Shown: positions 6,146 through 64,000 of the stretch, piece by piece
Layout of the letters: the number at the start of each line of letters is the position of its first letter
Position numbering within the stretch: position 1 is the first letter of the stretch
From: Octopus vulgaris
Lineage: Eukaryota
DNA length: 64,000 nt
Assembly: GCA_951406725.2 (NCBI GenBank)
Contig: OX597827.1
Span: 57,474,001-57,538,000, forward strand
Direction of reading: 5' to 3'
Notes under the pieces: model-generated
What the model saw: the letters and a program-made list of their open reading frames with translations, nothing else
What the model was told of the DNA's origin: nothing
The model's database searches: none
Translations under genes and position numbers: made by a program

Positions 6146-6665
6146 CCGTAAATCCTCGAATATAGTCCGCCCTTGAGTATAATACGCAGGGGATTTTTAG
6201 GGGGCTGTACTTCTGAAAAACCTAAACCTTGTGTATAATACGCACTCCTTCTCTAACTTGAGTCGTGCGTAATTAAGCCAGCAGCACCTAGTCGAACAAA
6301 CACTTCCGCACATGCATAATACAATAATGGTGATGTTCTTAACTGTTATATGGGAATGTAAATGTTTGCAAATTGTTTTTGTTACAGGTTATTCTGTGTT
6401 CTGAATACTTTTATTTTAATAAATGTTGCTTACTGCAAGTTATGGATGATTCTTCTTTGACTTCATTGCTTTCAGGTTTAGCTTAAGGTATTTTCGTGCC
6501 CGGCATCACAAAATGCCCTTGGATAAACATTGCCGGACAGCAAATAGAGACTCGGACATTGCTTAGGAAATATTTTTCATTTTTACCCTCGTAAATAGTA
6601 CGCTCTAGGGATTTTGACCTTTAAATTTTGGGGGGAAAATGCTGATTATACTCGAGGATTTACGG
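6146..6665. mobile_element. Tc1/mariner-superfamily (Tc2/pogo-like) MITE
   Basis: 19-bp TIR CCGTAAATCCTCGA(A/G)TATA, 18/19 match, flanked by TA on both sides. Confidence 0.85.
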
Positions 6666-8120: not shown

Positions 8121-8550
8121 CGTGAAAAAGTTCTATGCATCGTTTTCATGTTATAAAAATATAATATTAGAGGTTGCCACTGTCATTGCTAACGGTTTCT
8201 GTTGCAATTTACATTCACACTTTTTTAGGACAGTAAACTACTCGTTAACCAAATTGCCCGTATGCGGTATCTGGTGTTTCACTGGCCATTCATGATATTG
8301 GCTTCAAATTTTGGCAGAAGGCCAGCAATTTCATGGAAGGGATAAGTCGATTACATTGACCCCAGTATTCGATTGGTATTTATTTTATCGATTTATCGAC
8401 CCCGAAAGGATGAAAGGCAAAGTCGATATCAGAACGTTAAGTGCCATTCATGATATTAATAACGTTTTTCGGTATATATTTATTTTCAAAAATCTAGAAT
8501 AATAAATATTATAACAATGTACTGCTCATTTGATCAACAGAGGAAACTTG

Positions 8551-8952
8551 GGGTCTTTTCGGTTTGAACGGCAGTTTTTTCTAGCGGTGTCTTTTGAAAT
8601 TGTCACCCATAATTATGACCCTAGTATCGATCTATTGCATTTCAATCTGTTTTAGGGTTAGGGTTAGTTAGGGTTATGGTTAGGGGTGGGGGGAAGGGTA
8701 TCTTTTTTTCTTCACAAATGTAAATAAACCCAATCTGTTTCTTAAACGAGGGACATATTCATACGGGACAGAATGTTTTTTTACCTCGATGGACGTCACT
8801 GATTGGTTGAAATTGCAGAAATTGAAAAAAAAAACAAATATCTTACAAACTATAGAATTTTTTATAAACTCATTCTATCAGTATACGAAGTTTAAAATTT
8901 TTTAGTTACCTAGAAATTATGTTAAAAACTGCCGTTCAAACCGAAAAGATCC
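8551..8952. mobile_element. MITE with GG termini and ~29-bp TIRs (Merlin-like), containing TTAGGG repeats
   Basis: TIR GG(G/A)TCTTTTCGGTTTGAACGGCAGTTTTT; imperfect 8-bp TSD; second copy at 59591-60004, partial copy ending near 34100. Confidence 0.75.
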
Positions 8953-8991
8953 GAAGTTTGCATTATGACCCGCGTCTACCTATAAATGGTA

Positions 8992-19388: not shown

Positions 19389-20460
19389 TTACAGAAAAAC
19401 CGTTGAACCCCAATTGTGGCATCTCGGTATTCTGCCCTCCACGTTCACCCTTAGTTCTACTCTGTTCGAAAGAAAAATCAGGTCGGGAACTTTCTCAAAC
19501 TTCTCTGGCTTCACGTGGAGAAGAACCTCCAAGGTAGTCCCAACCCAATTCTTCCTCCTCGATCTTGTAACGCTCAGGAGATTTTGCCCGCCATCCCTAC
19601 AAATACACGCAAGAATCCACCATAGATTCAAGACTGGTGGGACTGCAGGTACCGTAATTCGTATCGCCCTCCTTCCCATGTACGTTGGGAAGAGGGCGAT
19701 TTCCTTGGTGCGACCCGTGGTCACCGAGTTCTGTATCGTCTGCTCCTTTGTCTTAAAAAATGCCCCTACTCCGCCGTACTGCCTCGCTCTCGCAATGTGG
19801 TGGATATTTTGCCATATGTCTTTCAAGGCTTTTTCCACTTGGTCGCATTTAGCATTTTCGAGCTTACTCGTCTTTGTATTTACACACCTGTAGACGACTG
19901 TTCGTTTCGTTGTTGCTTCGAGCACGTCGTCAGGAGGCGCCAATTCTGCCCTCCTTCCATTCATTTTCATAAATTTTGCCGCCTTGCTTAGTTTTTCTAT
20001 TTTGTCTTCCAATGAGATGTTAACCCATTCCTTAGCTGCCGTGATATTTGTCAAAGTTTTTTCCCTACCGCTAACTCCATTTTTTTAGACGCTTTGCAGT
20101 CGCTTTCAATATTGTTTTGCGTGCTCCTATAATTTCCATGTAACGAGAAAGATTTTACTCCTTCCTTCCTCTCGCTTTCTTTCTGCTTTTCCTCTTCTTT
20201 CTTCTTTTCTTGCCTCTAAGTTGCTTCTTCATCCTTCTTTTCTTCCTGCTGTCTGCTGCCAATCATGGCGAGGAGGACGGGGAAGTCTCCGTGCAAATTG
20301 CCGTACCACCTTCCTTCCTCACTCCCGCTTTTCGTTGCCATCTATCTTCAATGTTTACTTTCTTTGAAGTAAATTTTCGAGGAAATTTGAAAACAAAAAG
20401 GTTTATATCCCCCACCCCAAAAAATGGAGCTTTGGTTAACAAACGTCAGTTGGCTCACAA
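19389..20460 (-). mobile_element. Non-LTR retrotransposon (Tx1/L1-like) ORF1 relic
   Basis: 221-aa ORF ending V.VEGRIPRCHNWGST, a decayed CCHC knuckle as in Tx1-type ORF1. Confidence 0.55.
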
Positions 20461-21009: not shown

Positions 21010-22310
21010 CAATTCTAAGTGGAAAGTAGCAATACAAAAAGAGATCGAATTTTTGTAGGTGGATGTATCAGATCTTGATGAACTTTCTAGAGGAGTAAAT
21101 GTTAGGATGAAACAAGTTAGAAAAATCAAGCAAAAATATAAAATCAAAGATTTTATAAACCTCCCTGCAACCAAGGAACAATTGAAACAAAGAATACAAC
21201 TGAAAGCCCAACGGCTCAGAAGGTATGACAAAAGAATAAAATTTTCTTGACAAAATAAGCTATTCAAGACGGATGCAAACAAATTTTATAGGGAAATTGG
21301 CAAAAGCAAGCCACCTAAGAGTGAGGAAATGGAAGAATTCTGGAAGAAGATATGGAGAATATAATGCTGAAGCTCACTGAAAGTGAAACTGGATGAAGTT
21401 GAGGAGCAGAAATGGGAGGTACTAGGAGTAGAAGAGCTAAGATGTTGTTTTTAGAAAGTCTCACAAATGGAGAACCCCAGGACTGAACTGGATCCCTAAC
21501 TTCTGGCTGAATTGTTTCACAGAAGTACGCCAAAATTTTGCTGCATCCCTATTTGATGTCATCCAGAACCCAGAGCAAATTTTGTCGTCTTGCTTAGTTT
21601 TTCTATTTTGTCCTCCAATGAGATGTTAACCCATTCTTTAGCTGTTGTGATATTTGCAAAAGTTTCTTCCCTACCGCAAACTCCATTTTTTTTAGACACT
21701 TAGCAGTCGCTTTCAATATTGTTTCGCGTGCTCCTATAAAATCCATGTAGCGAGAAAGACTTTACTCCTTCCTTCCTCTCGCCGAAGGAACAACATACCT
21801 TCTTCCAAGAACTGATGACACACAAAAATCCAAAGAACTACTGACCAATAACATATCTCAACACTACTACAAGATCCTCACATCCATACTAACTGAAAGA
21901 ATACACAATTTTCTGGAACAGAACTCTATCCTTCCACAAGCTCAAAAAGGTTGTAAAAGGAATTCTTAGAATGATTGTAGAGAATTTCTGGAGCAACAAG
22001 AACTTTATTATGGCATGGAATAGACTACAGGAAAGTGTTTGACAGTGTCCCACATAACTGGCTACTCAAGGCCCTTGAGATATACAAGATCTCTCCTGTC
22101 ATCTCCAAATTCTTACAAGGTGGCAAAGTCAAGTGGAATACACGTCTTCTTCTAAACCATAGTAATGGGATGAGCCAATCTAGCATCAACATCAAACGAA
22201 GAATCTTTCAAAGTGACTCCCTTTCCTCATTACTCTTTTGCATGGTACTGTTCCCACTCTTAAACGAACTGAGTAACACCAGGTATGGGCTCAAAATATA
22301 TAATATTATA
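21010..22310 (+). mobile_element. R4/Dong-like reverse transcriptase relic
   Basis: AQRLRRY..QNKLF..D.NKFYR, EGTTYLLP..NY*PIT..YKILT..QKGC, DYRKVFDSVPHNWL, RIFQSDSLSSLLFC; stops and frameshifts; preceded by (AAT/AAC)n. Confidence 0.8.
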
Positions 22311-23329
22311 AGTAAATCATCTGAAGCTGTTTGTGAATCACAAAGAGCTAGTAGGACTGTTAACCCTCGCCTGTTTCTAGGCAAGGTAATATTTTTCCAT
22401 TTATCAGGCTTCACTATCTCTCTTGTGAAGACAAGAGAGATAGTAACACACATGCACACAAATATGTATATATTATTTACACAATGGGTTTCTTTCAGCT
22501 TCCATCCACCAAATCCATTCACAAGGCTTTGGTTCATCCAAAGCTATTGTAGAACATATGAACATACTTGCCCAAGGTGTCACACAGTGGGACTGAACCC
22601 AAAACCATATGGTTGGGAAGTAAGATTCTTACCAAGCCACATGAAAGCATATATACATTATATATATATATATATTTATATATCAAAAACAAGATGCTTT
22701 GACTTTGACAATTTTATGAATAAAAGGCTTAGAATATTTACATCATCAAAATATGTTACCGGTTTCAATTGTTTTAAAATAATTTATTCATGCAATAAGC
22801 CAAGCAAAAATAAAATGCATAAATTAATTTAATCTTTTCTGTAAGCAGTCTTCAAATGTTCACATGGTTTTCTTATAAACTTCAAATAATTGTGTTATTG
22901 CTCTCCTGGTGGTTGCTGAGTCATAACAGTAGTAATAACAGTTTTGGCAGTGGCAGTTATTGTTGCTTACCAATAATATTGATATTAAAAAGTGGTTCAT
23001 AGTTGTTAGAGAGGATGTATGGTAGGTGGCAGTAGTAGTAGCAGTAATAGTAGTGACCACAGTAGTAGTGGCTGAATCTCTCACTAATGGAAGTAATAGT
23101 AACTTAAGCAGTAGTTGTAGTAACAGAAGTAGTGGAAATGGTTGAAGTCATAGATGTAGTGGGAATGATTTGTTCCGCTCCTACAGTAATAGGTGTGGGC
23201 ACAGCAGTTGTAGTAGTAGTAGTAGTAGTAGTAATAGTAGTAGTAGCAATACTAATCTTCTTTCCCACAGTTTTAAGAAGTGGTTAGTATTTGATTATGA
23301 ATGTGGTTCCTTTGCTAATGTGTTTTTTG

Positions 23330-26219: not shown

Positions 26220-27285
26220 TACAGAAGCTGATTGTTTGTCATATTTGGATTAACTAACTTGAATATTCAATCCAGAGATTTCCAGCATTTCTCTCTAACA
26301 CCCAGTATGGAAGCATCTGCCATTGAAGGTGTTACTGCATTTCAAAATGTGTTTACAGAAGGAAGACACATGTCATTGAACCTCAACGAAGTAAGGAGTG
26401 CTGGAAACATATCACCTAAGTCCAAGAAAATCTGTGCGGTATGCGAGTCGTGAGGTGGGGATTTCAAAATCGTCTGTCCAACGCATTTTGAAGTGTTGTC
26501 ATTGGGAAAGTTACGTTCCAAGATTAGTCCATGCTATTAATGACGATTATCCAGACCGAAGAGTGCAGTATTGCGAATGGTACTTGGCACGATGTGTAGA
26601 AGATGCACACTTTCCAACAAAGACTGTGTGGAGTGGGGAGGCCACGTTCAAATTACATGGTTCAATTAACCATCACAATTGTACCTACTGGGGACCTGAG
26701 AATCCGCATGTTATGGCAGACCACCATGTTAATTTACCAGGAGTTACAGTGTGGTGTAGCTTATCAAGAAGATTAATTGGACCATTATTTTTTGATGCTA
26801 CTGTGACTGGTCCTGTCAACTTGAACTTGCTGCAACAGTCTTAGAGAAGATTTTGAAGATAAGGAGTTTTATTCTCAGCAAGATGGGGTACCTCCACACT
26901 ACCATCATGATATTAAATCCTAATTTGTTGAAATATTGCCAAACAGGGGTTTTTTTGTTGAACATCCTCTGTGTTCACCAGACCTCACACCACTAGACTT
27001 TTTTATATGGAGAATACAAAAAAGACAAAGTCTACACTATGAAACCTGCAACAGTCGCTGATTTGAGAGCAGCAATTGAACAAGAATGCACACAAATACC
27101 AAACGAATTCTTTCATGATGTCTGTGATCTCATCACTTCACGTTGTCGGCAGTGCCTGGACCGGAACGGACGTCAGTTTGAAAACAGGCATTGACAAAAC
27201 AATAGAATAATGTCTGTAGAATCTATTAAATTTTGAAAATGAAATGTATTTTAATAAACACCTACATTTTTTTTTAAGTACCCTG
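26220..27285 (+). mobile_element. Tc1/mariner-superfamily transposase pseudogene
   Basis: [53 protein letters not shown]; 3' TIR ends ...TACCCTG followed by TA. Confidence 0.85.
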
Positions 27286-29560: not shown

Positions 29561-30102
29561 TCAAGAAATATGAATTTTTTTGGTCTGTATAGGTTTTTCT
29601 ACAGCACTAACAGTTAATGGCCACATCCCACCAAGTATACCTGCCTGGATGGAAACACCAATGGCTACAGCTAGTTCCGGCTCGACTGACGTATTTGGAT
29701 CTTTGTTGAAATACTCTTTAATGAGTTCCCGGACCCTTGGTATTCGAGTCGATCCGCCAACCAAAACAACATCATGCACTTCCTGGCGATCCATAAGTAC
29801 CGTTTTCAGTACAGAATCAATAGGGTCTAGCACTTTCTTAAATAAGTCAGCATTGAGATTTTCAAAGTGTTGTCTCGTGACAGTGGTCTGGAATGTTGGT
29901 GAACCTTGAAAGGAGGTGATTTTCATGCTGATGTCTGTTGACAAATTGTTGGTCAGCTTCAATTTAGCATCCTCTACTTGAAAACGCAGTGTCTGTCTGT
30001 CTGTCTTGTCTTCTAACTGTTTGTTGAATTGTTTACTGATCAAATCCAGCATGTGGTCAGTAAGCCGTTGGTTAAAATCTTGTCCGCCTAAACGGTTATT
30101 AC
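29561..30102 (-). CDS. HSPA13: Heat shock 70 kDa protein 13, coding exon 7 (last)
   Basis: GNNRLGGQDFNQRL...VLVGGSTRIPRVR...VSIQAGILGGMWPLTVSAVE; TTTTCAG acceptor; TGA at 29561-29563. Confidence 0.95.
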
Positions 30103-30862
30103 CTGAAAAGTATAGTAAAGATAGGAAATATTTCTTTTGCAGAGCATTTGGTTCTGGTTTAAGTAATACAAACCCTATAATTTAACCATCAAATTGTAGT
30201 CCCTTGCACATTTACTACTTAAAATAGTCCATTTACCATTAAAATGTAATTGCTTACATTTATATAACAACTGTTGTTATCATTAGGCCTAACTCACCGT
30301 AAAGTCAATACCACCATGACTGATATCCAAACTACAGTGGAGAAGGCTAACCACTGGATTTGGTTAAAAAGAGACGATGAGCGATGGCTGGAAGAATATT
30401 GAGCTTTATTTGATAACCAGCTGATCTAGCAAGCGGGGCCTCATATCAGTTAGGGGTGCTGGAGCGCATTGATGCTGTCAAGAGGTAGGCCCCGAAATGG
30501 CACACATTCACTCCTGATGACCCCATACACTTGCTGGCTTCTGGTATGCGGAGTTTTTGACTGGTAGCACTTGCATGTGCAAGTTGTTTGCAAGACATTT
30601 ATATACCCAAATGTAATTTCTAACATTAACCCTTTAAATGTAATGCCCTACTCTCACATTTACCCTGCAAATGTAGTCAAATGTAGTCCTTTGTACTCAC
30701 ATTTACCCCACCAAAAGTAGTCTTGCACTCATAATTATACCAAATGCAATCCCTCACACTTAGCCCTGAAATATAGTTCCTTAGACTTATGCCATCTCAC
30801 CCTAACTGTAGTACTTACATTCACTCTCCAAATTGTAGTCCCTTACAGCCATATTGGCATCT

Positions 30863-34617: not shown

Positions 34618-35232
34618 TACATATATACATATACATACATATATTAAACTGTGGTTGCAGAACAAACAAAAAGAAAAAAAAATTTCTAAACGATGAACTT
34701 TTATCTGACCTTATATATATATTATATATTACTTATTTATATGCTTCCTATATTTATATATGTATTTTTATATATCTATATATTTATATATTTCTTATAT
34801 TTTTATTTTTATTATTCTAGGTGTTGTAATGTTTTTAAAAAAATATATATTTCTTAATCACTAAAGTATTAATCGTTAACTTTTAACCGAGATGAACTGT
34901 ATTCAAGCATTTTTCTTGTATTTTCTTATATGATTGTACTGATGAGTTGTGTTTCATCTTCCGTGATGTTATACATGTAAATTCTATATGAAAGAAAAAG
35001 CATTATGTGATTAAATGTTCGAGATATGAAATGTTACGTGGATGACCTTGTATTTGTTTGTTCTGCAACCACAGTTTAATATATTTGTCTCATTTAATTG
35101 AGCACTTCTATAACAGTCCTATTAAACATTTTGTTCCTGATAAGAAACAATTACTGTATTATTGATATACATATATATATACATGTATGTATACACACAC
35201 ACACACACAAATATGCAGGAAACAAAATATAC

Positions 35233-35452
35233 CAAGGAGATTTGCTGATTTCCTCGTGTAATTCCGTTGCATTTCATCAAATTCCGCTGGTACAGAGATG
35301 ACAACTTTCTTAACAGCAACTGACAAGTTCCGGTCTGCAGCTGCAACTAGAGTTCGAAGAAGAACGCTGCTAATTTCTTCAGGTGTCTTGTATGTTAGGT
35401 TGTTATTAACATTGATGTGGAACACAGGATATTTACCATTCCTTAAAGACAT
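35233..35452 (-). CDS. HSPA13: HSPA13 coding exon 5
   Basis: MSLRNGKYPVF...TPEEISSVLL...VISVPAEFDEMQRNYTRKSANLLG; canonical splice sites. Confidence 0.95.
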
Positions 35453-35548
35453 CTGAAAAACAAAATGGAGATGTTGAATCGGAAGAGATATAGTAAACAT
35501 TTTACTTTTATGTAAATAACTACATATCAGGGAATTATTTCATTTTTT

Positions 35549-37177: not shown

Positions 37178-37545
37178 ATGTTCAAACTGGTCAAATCCAG
37201 TTTCTAACACCTGAATGTTCAAACTGGTCAAATCCAGTTTCTAACACCTGAATGTTCAAACTGGTCAAATCCAGTTTCTAACACCTGAATGTTCAAACTG
37301 GCCAAATTCAGATTCTAACACCTGAATGTTCAAACTGGTCAAATCTAGTTTCTAACACCTGAATGTTCAAACTGGTAAAATCTAGTTTCTAACACCTGAA
37401 TGTTCAAACTGGTCAAATCCAGTTTCTAACACCTGAATGTTCAAACTGGTCAAATCCAGTTTCTAACACCTGAATGTTCAAACTGGTCAAATCCAGTTTC
37501 TAACACCTGAATGTTCAAACTGGCCAAATTCAGATTCTAACACCT
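37178..37545. repeat. Minisatellite, ~10 x 37 bp, inside a piggyBac-type MITE
   Basis: Unit ATGTTCAAACTGGTCAAATCCAGTTTCTAACACCTGA. Confidence 0.95.
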
Positions 37546-58410: not shown

Positions 58411-59590
58411 GTTTAAACTGGAAATTGTTGAAATAATAAACCATTAACACAATGAACAGTTTAAAAAGTAAATAGCTGAAATGTTAAACCACTGATATAC
58501 TTAATTGTTTAAAACTGTTAAGCGTTTGAAATAGTAAAGCACTAACACAGTTAACAGTATAAATGGTTAACTACTAGCACAGTTAACTTTTCAAACTATA
58601 TATTGTTGAAATGGTAAACTATGGACAGTTGTTTTAATCCTTTAGCATATAAACTGGCCACATCAGGCCTAAGTATTTTTTATTCTTTATGTTCAAACCA
58701 GCTGGATCCAGCCTTTCACACCTATCCTACAATAAAATTAAATAATCACATCATCGAAATCTCATAACTGCAAGATAATGCATGATTAATCAAAACAATG
58801 CAAATAAACAAGAATTTACATTTGACAGAGTAATCTGAATACTAAAGGATTAAAACCATAAAATGTTGAAATGAAATGGTAAGCCACTGGAACAGCAGTT
58901 AACTGTTTAACCTTTTCGTTACCAACCCAGCTGAAACCAGCTCTGGCTCTTCAGTACAAATGTCTAGTTTTCATAAGTTTGGAATTAAAATCTCCCACCA
59001 AACCTTAGTCACAATTCATGTTCCTAATACCAGCTGAATGATAACTAAGTTATTTTACTAAATTCTTTGTTATATTTAATGTAATTGAAAGAAACACAGA
59101 GCATCTCGAAATAAATACAGTAACGAAAGGGTTAAATTGTAAATGGTTAATGTGATAAACAATTGATATTGTGAGCATGGATAAAGAGAGTTCCGTAGAG
59201 ATGCAGTATTGAGATGAGAAAAATGCTAAGTGCAAGTTTCAGAAATAGTAACCATCTCTTCAGAAAAAGTTATATCTTGGCAAACTGGCAGTGTAAATGA
59301 AACTAGGACATAGATTTCCTGTTTTTAGAGCTATTTTCTTAAAAGAGCAAAACAAAGCAGGAGAGGAGATAGCACTTGTAGGTTCCTATCCTCTTCCATA
59401 ATACGAAGACGAGTCAGAAAGTACTGCATTTGTTATTGGCATTGCTTTTTGACTTGTCCTCATTTATACAAAGATTAATCAAAAAGTAATGCATATAAAA
59501 TTTAAAACTAGTTTATTCACATTTTTCAATATTCTTATGGAAGGGATGCATAGGAATGTATGTTATTAAAATAAAACAAATTTAAAATCC

Positions 59591-60004
59591 GGATCTTTTC
59601 GGTTTGAACGGCAGTTTTTAACATAATTTCTAGGTAACTAAAAAATTTTAAACTTCGTATACTGGTAGAATGTGTTTATAAAACATCTTTTTCTCTTAGC
59701 TTTATTGAGAAAATTCTATAGTTTGTAAGATATTTGTTATTTTTTTCTTCAATTTCTGCAATTTCAACCAATCAATGACGTCTATTGAGGTGAAAACATT
59801 CTGTGCCGTATGAATATGTCCCTCGTTTAAGAAATAGATTGGGTTTATTTACATTTGTGAAGAAAAAAAGTTACCTTCCCCCCACCCCTAACCCTAACCC
59901 TAAAACGGATTGAAATGCAATAGATCGATATGAGGGTCATAATTATGGGTGACAATTTCATATGACGCTGCTAGAAAAAACTGCCGTTCAAACCAAAAAG
60001 ATCC
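59591..60004. mobile_element. Merlin-like MITE, inverse orientation to the 8551 copy
   Basis: Same TIR; 8-bp TSD TAAAATCC/TAAAATTC. Confidence 0.8.
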
Positions 60005-60073
60005 TAAAATTCTGTTATGAAAATCAATTTCTAATTTTCTTTTCCTATTCTTTTATTGTCTTACATTTTTCAG

Positions 60074-60149: not shown

Positions 60150-60288
60150 GTAAGTATACAGTTACATACTTAGATAAGTTTTGACCTGCATTGGCCCAGG
60201 CCATGTCTAACTTAATAGCACTTCCTGGATGTGGATGTGTGTGTGTGCAGAGGTGCACTCCAATGTGTTTGTACTTGTTTCCTCTTTT

Positions 60289-60400
60289 CCTTGTTTCAGT
60301 CATTTGATTGTGGCCATGCTGGAGCACAGCCCTTAGTTGAGTAAATCGCTCCCAGGACTTATTCTTTGTAAGCCTAGTACTTATTCTGTCGGACTCTTTT
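60289..60400 (-). mobile_element. Family A SINE 3' part, truncated at the satellite junction
   Basis: Matches family A up to ...CTCTTTTG, then switches to satellite sequence. Confidence 0.75.
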
Positions 60401-60821
60401 GTTGAAAATTTTCGTAAAATTATTGGGTAAAATTTTCAATGAAAATTTTCGAAAAATTTTTTGGGAAAATTTTCTGTGAAAATTTTCTAAAAATTTTTTG
60501 AGAAAATTTTCGAAAAATTTTGGGGGAAAGTTTCAAAAAATTTTCGGGTAAAATTTTCGGTGATTTTGGCACCATTGGTCTTCCATACTTTATGATTTTG
60601 GCACCTCTGGCCTTCCATACTTTGTGATTTTGGCACCGCTGGCTTTCCATACTTTGTAATTTTGGCACCGCTGGCATTCCATACTTTGGGGAAAATTTTC
60701 GAAAAATCTTTGGGTAAATTTATCGTTAAAAATTTTCGTAATATTTTCGTGGAAAATTTGGGGAAAATTTTCGGCAAAAGTTTTCGAAAAATTTTGGTGA
60801 AAATTTTTGGGGAAAATTTTC

Positions 60822-61030
60822 GGAATCCCGTATAACGAATATGCTCCATATGCTGATGTCTATAAACTTCGATATGGTCATAATTGTTAAGTGTAAAGTA
60901 GAATCTGGTGTATCGTTGATTGTGAGGCATCTTGACTGTAATATTAAACCAGAATTCACTCTATACAAAGAAAGCAGCAGAAGCAGCCACCTAAAATTCT
61001 ATTTTTAGCCATAACATCTATTTTTAGCTT
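60822..61030 (-). pseudogene. CRESS-DNA-virus-like ori plus 5' rep fragment, copy 1
   Basis: TAATATTAC (60938-60946), 7 nt, then ATG (60930) MPHNQRYTRFYFTLNNYDHIEVYRHQHMEHIRY. Confidence 0.6.
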
Positions 61031-61112
61031 GGGGAAAATTTTCGAAAAATTTTCGGGAAAATTTTCGAAAAATCTTTGGGGAAAATTTGTGGTGAAAATT
61101 TTCGAAAATTTT

Positions 61113-61312
61113 CGGAAACCCATATAACGAATATGCTCCATATGCTGATGTCTATAAACGTCGATATGGTCATAATTGTTAAGTGTAAAGTAGAATCTGG
61201 TGTATCGTTGATCATGAGGCATCTTAACTGTAATATTAAACCAGAATTCACTCTATACAAAGAAAGCAGCCACCTAAAATTCTATTTTTAGCCATAACAT
61301 CTATTTTTAGCT
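61113..61312 (-). pseudogene. CRESS-like ori plus 5' rep fragment, copy 2
   Basis: TAATATTAC (61230-61238); ATG 61222; MPHDQRYTRFYFTLNNYDHIDVYRHQHMEHIRYMGF. Confidence 0.6.
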
Positions 61313-62150
61313 CGGGAAAATTTTCAAAAAATTTTTGGGGAAAATTTTTGATGATTTTGGCACCTCTGGCTTTCCATACTTTGTGATTTTGGCAGCGCTA
61401 GCTTTCCATACTTTATGATTTCGGCACCACTAGGTATCCATACTTTGGGATGTTGGCACCACTGATTTTCCATACTTTGGGGAAAATTTTTGTTGAAAAT
61501 TTTCGTAAAATTATTGGGTAAAATTTTCTAAAATTTTTTGGGAAAATTTTCGGCAAAAATGTTCCAAAAATTTTCGTAAAATTTTTGGGGAAAATTTTCC
61601 AAATATTTTTAGGTAAAATTTTCGGTGAAAATTTTCTAAAAATTTTTGGTGTAAAATTTTTGGTGAAAATTTTGGAAAAATTTTTGGGTAAAATTTTCAG
61701 GTAAAATTTTTGGTGATTTAGGCACCATTGGTCTTCCATACTTTATGATTTTGGCACCTCTTGCCTTCCATACTTTGTGATTTTGGCACCGCTGGCTTTC
61801 CATACTTTGTAATTTTAGCACTGCTGGCTTTCCATACTTTGGGGAAAAATTTCGGAGAAAATTTTCGAAAAATCTTTGGGTGAATTTTTCGGCAAAAGTT
61901 TTTGAAAAATTTTGGGGGAAAATTTTCGGAATCCCATATAACGAATATGCTCCATATGCTTATGTCTATAAACGTCGATATGGTCATATTTGGTCATATT
62001 TTTAGCCATAACATCTATTTTTAGCTCGGGGAAAATTTTCGAAAAACTTTTGGGGAAAATTTTCGATGGAAATTTTCGAAAAATTTTTGGGTAAAATTTG
62101 TGGTGAAAATTTTCGAAAATTTTTGGGTAAAATTTCCAATGAAAATTTTC

Positions 62151-62360
62151 GGAAACCCATATAACGAATATGCTCCATATGCTGATGTCTATAAACGTCG
62201 ATATGGTCATAGTTGTTAAGTGTAAAGTAGAATCTGGTGTATTGTTGATCGTGAGGCATCTTAACTGTAATATTAAACCAGAATTCACTCTATACAAAGA
62301 AAGCAGCAGAAGCAGCCACCTAAAATTCTATTTTTAGCCATAACATCTATTTTTAGCTCG
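62151..62360 (-). pseudogene. CRESS-like ori plus 5' rep fragment, copy 4 (copy 3 at 61928-62030 is internally deleted)
   Basis: TAATATTAC (62267-62275); ATG 62259; MPHDQQYTRFYFTLNNYDHIDVY. Confidence 0.6.
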
Positions 62361-64000
62361 GGGAAAATTTTCGAAAAATTTTTGGGGAAAATTTTTGAAA
62401 AGTTTTTGGGTAAAATTTTCGATAATTTTGGCACCACTGGCTTTCCATACTTTGTGATTTTGGCAGCGCTATCTTTCCATACTTTATGATTTCGACACCG
62501 CTAGGTATCCATACTTTGGGATGTTGGCACCACTGATTTTCCATACTTTGGGGAAAATTTTTGTTGAAAATTTTCGTAAAATTATTGGGTAAAATTTTCT
62601 AAAATTTTTTGGGAAAATTTTCTAAAAATTTTTTGAGAAAATTTTCGGCAAAAATGTTCCAAAAATTTTCGTAAAATTTTTGGGGAAAATTTTCCAAATA
62701 TTTTTAGGTAAAATTTTCGGTGAAAATTTTCTAAAAATTTTTGGGTAAAATTTTTGGTGAAAATTTTAGAAAGATTTTTGGTGAAAATTTTGGAAAAATT
62801 TTTGGGTAAAATTTTCAGGTAAAATTTTTGGTGATTTAGGCACCATTGGTCTTCCATACTTTATGATTTTGGCACCTCTTGCCTTCCATACTTTGTGATT
62901 TTGGCACCGCTGGCTTTCCATACTTTGTGATTTTGGCAGCGCTATCTTTCCATACTTTATGATTTCGACACCGCTAGGTATCCATACTTTGGGATGTTGG
63001 CACCACTGATTTTCCATACTTTGGGGAAAATTTTTGTTGAAAATTTTCGTAAAATTATTGGGTAAAATTTTCAGCAAAAATGTTCGAAAAATTTTTGCGG
63101 AAAATCTTCGTAAAATTTTTGGGAAAAATTTTCTGTGAAAATTTTCCAAAAATTTTTAGGTAAAATTTTCTAAAAATTTTCTGGTAAAATTTTTGGTAAA
63201 AATTTTACAAAGATTTTTAGGTAAAATTTTGGAAAAATTTCTGGGTAAATTTTCGAAAAATTTTGGGGTAAAATTTTCGGTGATTTTGGCACCATTGGTC
63301 TTCCATACTTTATGATTTTGGCACCTCTGGCCTTCCATACTTTGTAATTTTGGCACCGCTGGCTTTCCATACTTTGTAATTTTGGCACCGCTGGCTTTCC
63401 ATACTTTGGGGAAAAATCTTTGGGTAAATTTATTGTTGAAAATTTCTGTAAAATTTTCGATGGGGAAAACTATTTTTTTCAAGTATAATATATCTGATGG
63501 TGTTTCATTAGATTACATATTTTTACAGCTGCATGTCCTGTCTAACTGCTATGCACCAAACAATGGTGATACAACTGACAAATCTATCCAGATTAAAATC
63601 ATATAAATATCTGAAATGAATCGATGTTGTTCATTAAGATTATAAATTTTCAGGCTATTAACCTTTCTTTTGAGATGAAAAATCTTTCGTCTATAAATAT
63701 GAGATCAATAGTCTGCAAAATACTAATCTTATTACTTGGTCATTAGTACTTGTAGCAGAGCCTAAGCTCACTGGAAGTCTCACTGTCTGCTTGCTGCTTG
63801 ACAAATATTTATCAGTTCAATTTTTCATATGATTACAGCAGTGGGATATTCCGCTCTGTGGTAATTGCTCACAGTAATCTCAATAGAGCTGTTGAACGTT
63901 AAGTAGTGTTTTGACTGTGAACACAATGCAGTGCTAATGAGAAGCTATGAATTGCTATCCTCTCAGCTGGTCATCACAGCTCTCAATAGCTTTGATGAAG

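Follow-up and report, generated by a model that had tools for sequence, protein, structure and literature searches.

The octopus DNA analyzed here (64,000 nucleotides, referred to as the window) contains a cassette of ~200 nt in which the start of a Rep gene is joined to the nonamer TAATATTAC. Four copies of this cassette are nested in a tandem array inside host DNA. We consider it probable that the cassette is an origin-plus-rep fragment of an endogenous CRESS virus that is now inactive and has been multiplied passively together with the surrounding satellite. The coordinates of the features are collected in Table 1.

Table 1. Position, strand and character of the array, its cassettes and their elements within the window
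Feature	Position	Strand	Remarks
Compound tandem array, 3.1 kb	60403-63465 (right end approximate)		~2.3 higher-order units of 1567, 1153 and 285 nt
Dispersed host repeat (SINE-like), 5' part	60280-60402	+	Truncated by the array; the join has a 10-nt microhomology
Predicted shortened Rep N-terminus, cassette 1	60820-60930	-	37 codons read, ~34 Rep-like, motif I FTLNN, then satellite
Predicted shortened Rep N-terminus, cassette 2	61112-61222	-	68% identical to P0003 over 34 aa
Predicted shortened Rep N-terminus, cassette 3	62149-62259	-
TAATATTAC nonamer, cassette 1	60938-60946	-	Likely relic nick site, without a real hairpin
TAATATTAC nonamer, cassette 2	61230-61238	-
TAATATTAC nonamer, cassette 3	62267-62275	-
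Weak TATA-like site	60959-60965, with counterparts at 61257 and 62294	-	35 nt ahead of the ATG, upstream of the nonamer
Two 12-nt direct repeats, cassette 1	60998-61028 (61017-61028 and 60998-61009)	-	Possible iterons
Two 12-nt direct repeats, cassette 2	61281-61311	-	9 nt nearer the nonamer than in the other two cassettes
Two 12-nt direct repeats, cassette 3	62327-62357	-
Fourth cassette	61935-62025	-	Nonamer, ATG and most of motif I lost by internal deletion

A predicted CRESS-type Rep N-terminus behind the nonamer

A phmmer search of 1.84 billion proteins with the cassette peptide returned four matches, two of which were Rep N-termini (P0003 and P0004; E 8.8e-7 and 4.4e-5, respectively). 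Counted from the first methionine, the peptide was 68% identical to P0003 (23 of 34 residues) and 51% identical to P0004. P0004 passed the Pfam Viral_Rep family PF02407 (38.3 bits against a cut-off of 26) and continued into the remainder of the nuclease domain. In the PDB, the six best of the eight matches of P0004 were Rep or replicase chains, including circovirus Rep. One of the PDB matches, 7KII, is described as duck circovirus Rep (PMC9973303), and the string ARCHIEKAKG, present in the top PDB alignments of P0004, is given for PCV2 (PMC7826260). Both P0003 and P0004 look frameshifted, derive from short contigs and may themselves be endogenous fragments. The two top phmmer matches, P0001 and P0002, were dropped as concatemers of the translation of a sequencing adapter, which resembles part of the cassette peptide by chance. 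Their repeated motif is what we take to be the adapter.

Independently of P0003 and P0004, a profile of two distant full-length Reps (L001 and L005) was scored on 1631 window peptides and 1631 reversed decoys (3262 in all). It ranked two of the cassette peptides top (E 0.025 and 0.029) and the third copy fourth (E 0.93). Two cassette peptides were also ranked top by a profile of five distant Reps, at an E value that was not significant (1.7). Comparison by hhalign gave a probability of 90.9 for the Rep match, with a query alignment that includes P0003, and the fourth cassette matched P0003 by tblastn (E 2e-4). Collectively, these similarities identify the frame behind the nonamer as a CRESS-type Rep N-terminus.

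The homology to CRESS Rep covers only the N-terminus and motif I. It stops ~34 codons in, where the satellite starts, and no HUH motif, catalytic motif or helicase was found within the window. The original prediction had described three intact cassettes, a term that suits them only relative to the fourth, deleted copy. No further Rep pieces were detected in the window by tblastn with eight Rep queries or by a full-length profile (best E 0.35), and the cassette peptide by itself gave no Rep family match in Pfam or the PDB. A word-index search found no close full-length relative, and a profile search gave only P0003 and P0004 (two of eight candidates). Scans of GTDB for full-length relatives confirmed 0 of 151 and 1 of 88 candidates, the single one being a distant Rep without the nonamer. 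There was no usable match in the ESM Atlas, and no match was obtained by blastn of the cassette against phages, by a plasmid search with the L001 Rep or with Rfam and ARAGORN.

One minus-strand frame in the 32-nt repeats of the array (60560-60688 and five other blocks) reads YGKPAVPKS, with a spacing like that of Walker A but lacking two of that motif's glycines. Its likeness to the Walker A motif of Rep has no profile support and is probably a coincidence.

The nonamer lies closer to the Rep-frame ATG than expected by chance

An exact-match search located TAATATTAC on the strand of the Rep frame in three of the four cassettes, at the positions originally predicted. The spacer of 7 nt that had been described between nonamer and ATG was found in all three, and this ATG opens the frame containing FTLNN. 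The nonamer has the form NANTATTAC that is a feature of CRESS-DNA rolling-circle origins. Exact TAATATTAC occurred five times in the window, each time on the minus strand, with three occurrences in the cassettes and two unrelated (48926 and 54211). The expected count was 1.65, and 5 of 100 shuffles reached five. Since the three cassette nonamers are duplicates, the raw count alone is not beyond chance.

The position of the nonamer was compared with control ATG frames. None of 444 had the exact nonamer within 100 nt upstream, and NANTATTAC was found within 20 nt upstream of 1 and within 100 nt upstream of 9. Estimated from two background hits only, the background for the exact nonamer was 0.0003 at up to 20 nt on the same strand and 0.005 at up to 150 nt on either strand. 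For the looser motif NANTATTAC, a chance occurrence at up to 150 nt has a probability of 0.064 (~6%). The exact nonamer is unlikely to lie this near the Rep-frame ATG, on the same strand, by chance, and the earlier argument that its position beside FTLNN is support was borne out.

A second argument, that the nonamer persists in three copies, did not survive. The three full cassettes differ at 8 sites of 209 nt, are 96-98% alike and carry distinct substitutions. At this level of variation, a 9-mer would be invariant with a probability of 0.70. Thus, as near-identical duplicates, the three cassettes amount to one event and are silent on conservation. Because the Rep N-terminus is genuine and the proximity of the nonamer is unlikely by chance, a relic origin is the best reading, and the nonamer is likely to be a former viral nick site.

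The hairpin is missing, and putative iterons lie upstream

The best stem around the nonamer was the 3-bp CTG/CAG in all three cassettes (about -0.2 kcal/mol). Stems of at least 3 bp arise in 28% of random flanks, which places this stem at chance level. In the reference CRESS genomes (3/3), 7-8 perfect bp formed the stem, with folding energies of -9.7 to -13.4 kcal/mol. Folding z-scores for the cassettes were positive in 8/8 folds, none of which was better than shuffles. The nonamer is therefore not at the apex of a 9-11-bp stem, as is characteristic of CRESS-DNA rolling-circle origins. The original prediction had correctly noted that only the 3-bp stem flanks the nonamer; its reading of this stem as a degenerate hairpin is undercut by the frequency of such stems in random flanks. 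A longer inverted repeat spanning the nonamer and the ATG was rejected, as its 6 perfect bp are reached by 25% of random pairs.

Upstream direct repeats had also been predicted and were present in all three cassettes as a GCTAAAAATAGA pair, 19 nt from start to start. A further 9-nt segment in that prediction was found in two cassettes and is absent at 61266-61274. The distance between repeats and nonamer differs among the copies (51 versus 42 nt). Pairs of 12-nt direct repeats occurred in 8 of 753 control 80-nt windows, which makes the pair modestly unusual, and it resembles the A-tract satellite; we regard the repeats as putative iterons. The TATA-like site overlaps a pyrimidine-rich TAG, which may be a splice acceptor instead.

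The cassettes are nested in a satellite array in host DNA

The array combines GAAAATTTTC-type satellite with paired cassettes and a 32-nt repeat, which is present in 26 copies grouped into six blocks. Its ends at 60403 and ~63465 are far from the nick positions at 60940, 61232 and 62269. The window is animal genomic DNA, rich in microsatellites, and the array is embedded in host chromosomal DNA: the flanking repeat has 10 other copies in the window, and HSP70-family exons and a reverse transcriptase remnant lie alongside. The flanking repeat, which we take to be similar to an Octopus SINE, is interrupted by the array, and its 3' part was not found to the right of the array.

Several other features of the window were recorded. 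Exons of an HSP70-family gene lie on the minus strand at 29561-30181 and 35159-35539 (Pfam E 3e-43 and 2e-9), and its predicted C-terminus resembles that of HSPA13/STCH. Two copies of a MITE-like repeat, at 59585-60010 and 8548-8959, agree at 84% over 443 nt; the repeat has inverted matches at its termini and a CCCTAA run resembling telomeric DNA. Open frames resembling remnants of mobile elements were seen at 19389-20084 (minus), 21981-22832 (plus) and 26395-26844 (plus), for which Pfam gave no match, a weak RVT_1 match (E 7e-5) and a weak Tc3-type HTH match (E 0.03), respectively. A highly uniform 37-nt minisatellite occupies 37178-37545 (9.9 copies, 96% matches).

Comparison with known origins and mobile elements

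Geminiviruses encode Rep on the strand opposite the nonamer. Here, nonamer and Rep share a strand, the Rep matches are to PF02407 and circoviruses with no match to a geminivirus Rep family, and TAATATTAC is present without the GC-rich stem-loop of geminivirus origins and GRD. The cassette is not a geminivirus origin, as stem, Rep type and strand all disagree, and the geminivirus link drawn in the original prediction is not supported. The Nicotiana GRD and yam EGV1 elements, as described in PMC5014472, share with the cassette an endogenous origin-like sequence of an ssDNA virus with a shortened rep, multiple direct repeats and TAATATTAC; GRD is reported there to drift neutrally. In contrast to these elements, the cassette has an animal host, a PF02407/circovirus-like rather than begomoviral Rep, a nonamer on the Rep strand and no GC-rich stem. 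In addition, it keeps only ~34 codons and is nested in two kinds of minisatellite.

The origins of circoviruses, nanovirid DNA-R and alphasatellites, as described in PMC9049520 and PMC7826260, have a Rep-sense nonamer shortly before the Rep start, an upstream TATA-like site and nearby short direct repeats in common with the cassette. The TATA of alphasatellites precedes the origin and their Rep AUG is given at nt 41 (PMC9049520), a position that appears to be numbered from the nonamer. Whereas the stem in these origins has 9-11 bp and the AUG lies tens of nucleotides past the nonamer, the cassette has 3 bp, 7 nt and no complete gene. By analogy, its geometry resembles the circovirus/alphasatellite type.

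Degraded Rep-like sequences are described from invertebrate genomes, including those of four mollusc species (PMC6069186, PMC3198968). These endogenous CRESS or circoviral elements are presented as Rep fragments, whereas the cassette also has a probable relic origin and a tandem arrangement. A term search of the main text of both papers, whose supplementary element tables could list cephalopods, showed no cephalopod, origin or tandem arrangement. Replitrons and Helitrons are likewise HUH/Rep-linked mobile DNA of eukaryotic chromosomes with short direct repeats, as described in PMC10288648; their motifs are at the termini, whereas the repeats and nonamer of the cassette are internal and the array ends in satellite with a microhomology join. 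At this one locus, neither the defined termini nor the clean insertion of a non-autonomous element of the Replitron or Helitron type was seen, as the ends are satellite and the 3' part of the interrupted repeat is missing.

As judged from these comparisons, the cassette agrees with an endogenous CRESS element in its Rep homology and its host chromosomal setting and, lacking a stem, would not be a working CRESS origin.

Alternative explanations for the nonamer

Several points count against reading the nonamer as an origin: the chance-level stem, the 6% frequency of the loose motif, an L001 nonamer before a non-Rep gene, the absence of a Rep family match by the peptide alone and the failure to find a close full-length relative together with its DNA context. 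The Rep fragment could be viral and the nonamer an AT-rich leader or promoter string of rep, perhaps from a larger Rep-encoding virus, that was never a nick site. We consider this explanation unlikely, while noting that it accounts for the missing hairpin, and that a normal 9-11-bp stem would need to overlap the ATG. L001, a Rep-encoding genome of 19.6 kb, has the exact nonamer just upstream of 1 of 39 gene starts without a stem (expected 0.025), a case that was noticed after the fact and that relies on an in-frame ATG lying ahead of the start annotated for the gene. This non-Rep gene shows that a viral AT-rich leader can produce such a pattern. Further, the nonamer is missing upstream of rep in both L001 and L005, whose full Reps are the most similar to the peptide; these Reps are only ~30% identical to P0004, so they are not close controls. 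Against a leader stands the match to the exact canonical origin nonamer on the Rep strand, absent from all 444 controls, and TAATATTAC is the annotated origin in two unclassified arthropod CRESS genomes (PMC6186406).

The sequences recovered during these searches had features of their own. In L001 (OP947160.1, Pinkberry virus), positions 6604-6619 on the minus strand hold the exact TAATATTAC without a stem, followed after 6 nt by an in-frame ATG that would extend the hypothetical gene PBPMD00_23, and the genome also has two Rep-annotated genes. L005 (JBOFGC010000087.1, 1516-3879) is a contig of a Bacilli MAG with a Viral_Rep protein near the Pinkberry Rep and a capsid-like frame, and is probably a mis-binned virus. 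L002 to L004 (OM869583, OM869672 and OM869688) are filed under Microviridae, a taxonomy line that looks wrong, as they carry a CRESS-type Rep, a capsid and a TAGTATTAC stem-loop.

The cassette could also be the cis-origin of a non-autonomous rolling-circle element, with a full-length Rep encoded elsewhere that binds the repeats, nicks the nonamer and spreads or amplifies the 1.2-1.6-kb unit. The size of this unit is within the range of subviral circles, and the array interrupts the host repeat and hence arrived later. The nonamer and both repeats are invariant in all three full cassettes, but such invariance is expected by chance (0.70). The array ends lie off the nick site, a clean insertion followed on its other side by the remainder of the host repeat was not found, and the window contained no intact Rep. 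Reps are described as nicking bare, stemless nonamer oligonucleotides in vitro (PMC10653810, PMC7826260); in vivo, however, the TGMV stem is described as essential and the spacing from iteron to stem as important (PMC10653810), and here the spacing varies. Taken together, we judge rolling-circle amplification of the cassette to be distinctly improbable.

It is highly improbable that the motif owes its origin or retention to a role as splice acceptor of the host (TTTAATATTACAG), with the Rep stub as an exonised fragment. The nonamer and the next base end in CAG, but this CAG has an ordinary pyrimidine content, reached by 38% of YAG sites. Another TAG, located 25 nt upstream, ranks among the top 2% of YAG sites in the window by its pyrimidine tract; the frame itself runs into low-complexity satellite. 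Finally, a chance combination of nonamer and FTLNN in AT-rich satellite DNA, or an assembly artefact, is largely refuted and has a negligible likelihood: searched by itself, the peptide matches neither a Pfam Rep family nor a PDB entry, and two of its four phmmer matches are adapter concatemers, but it shares 23 of 34 residues with P0003 from the first methionine, P0004 extends into the rest of the nuclease domain, and the cassette copies carry distinct substitutions.

Proposed origin of the cassette and its significance

Under the favored reading of an inactive endogenous CRESS fragment, a small circular ssDNA virus, with its origin and the start of rep side by side on one strand, would have entered the germ line. 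Only the origin-proximal fragment would have come into an AT-tract satellite, and its stem may have decayed or may never have been captured whole. As the copies are 96-98% alike and did not lose a stem among themselves, the putative loss must predate them. The composite unit may then have been copied by slippage or unequal exchange, without Rep action at the site, and have joined the flanking host repeat through microhomology. We infer passive copying from the array ends away from the nick positions, the 10-nt microhomology at the left join, the lack of the nonamer in one of four cassettes and the variable repeat spacing.

Literature listings that included few subscription papers showed no element of this kind, whether from octopus or from an animal satellite. 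It is very doubtful that this is an octopus satellite family with a captured CRESS origin whose spread is, or recently was, driven by Rep through rolling-circle copying that starts at a stemless nonamer. If true, an animal genome would harbor a non-autonomous rolling-circle satellite of viral derivation, and genome-wide copies with nick-site ends, if found, would link the spread of the satellite to a viral rolling-circle enzyme. As an inactive fragment, the more probable reading, the cassette would be a fossil that records germ-line infection of an animal host by a CRESS lineage that is unclassified and for which the P0003 and P0004 fragments are the only close relatives recovered. In animals, it would be the equivalent of GRD in plants, with an origin and a rep stub in tandem.
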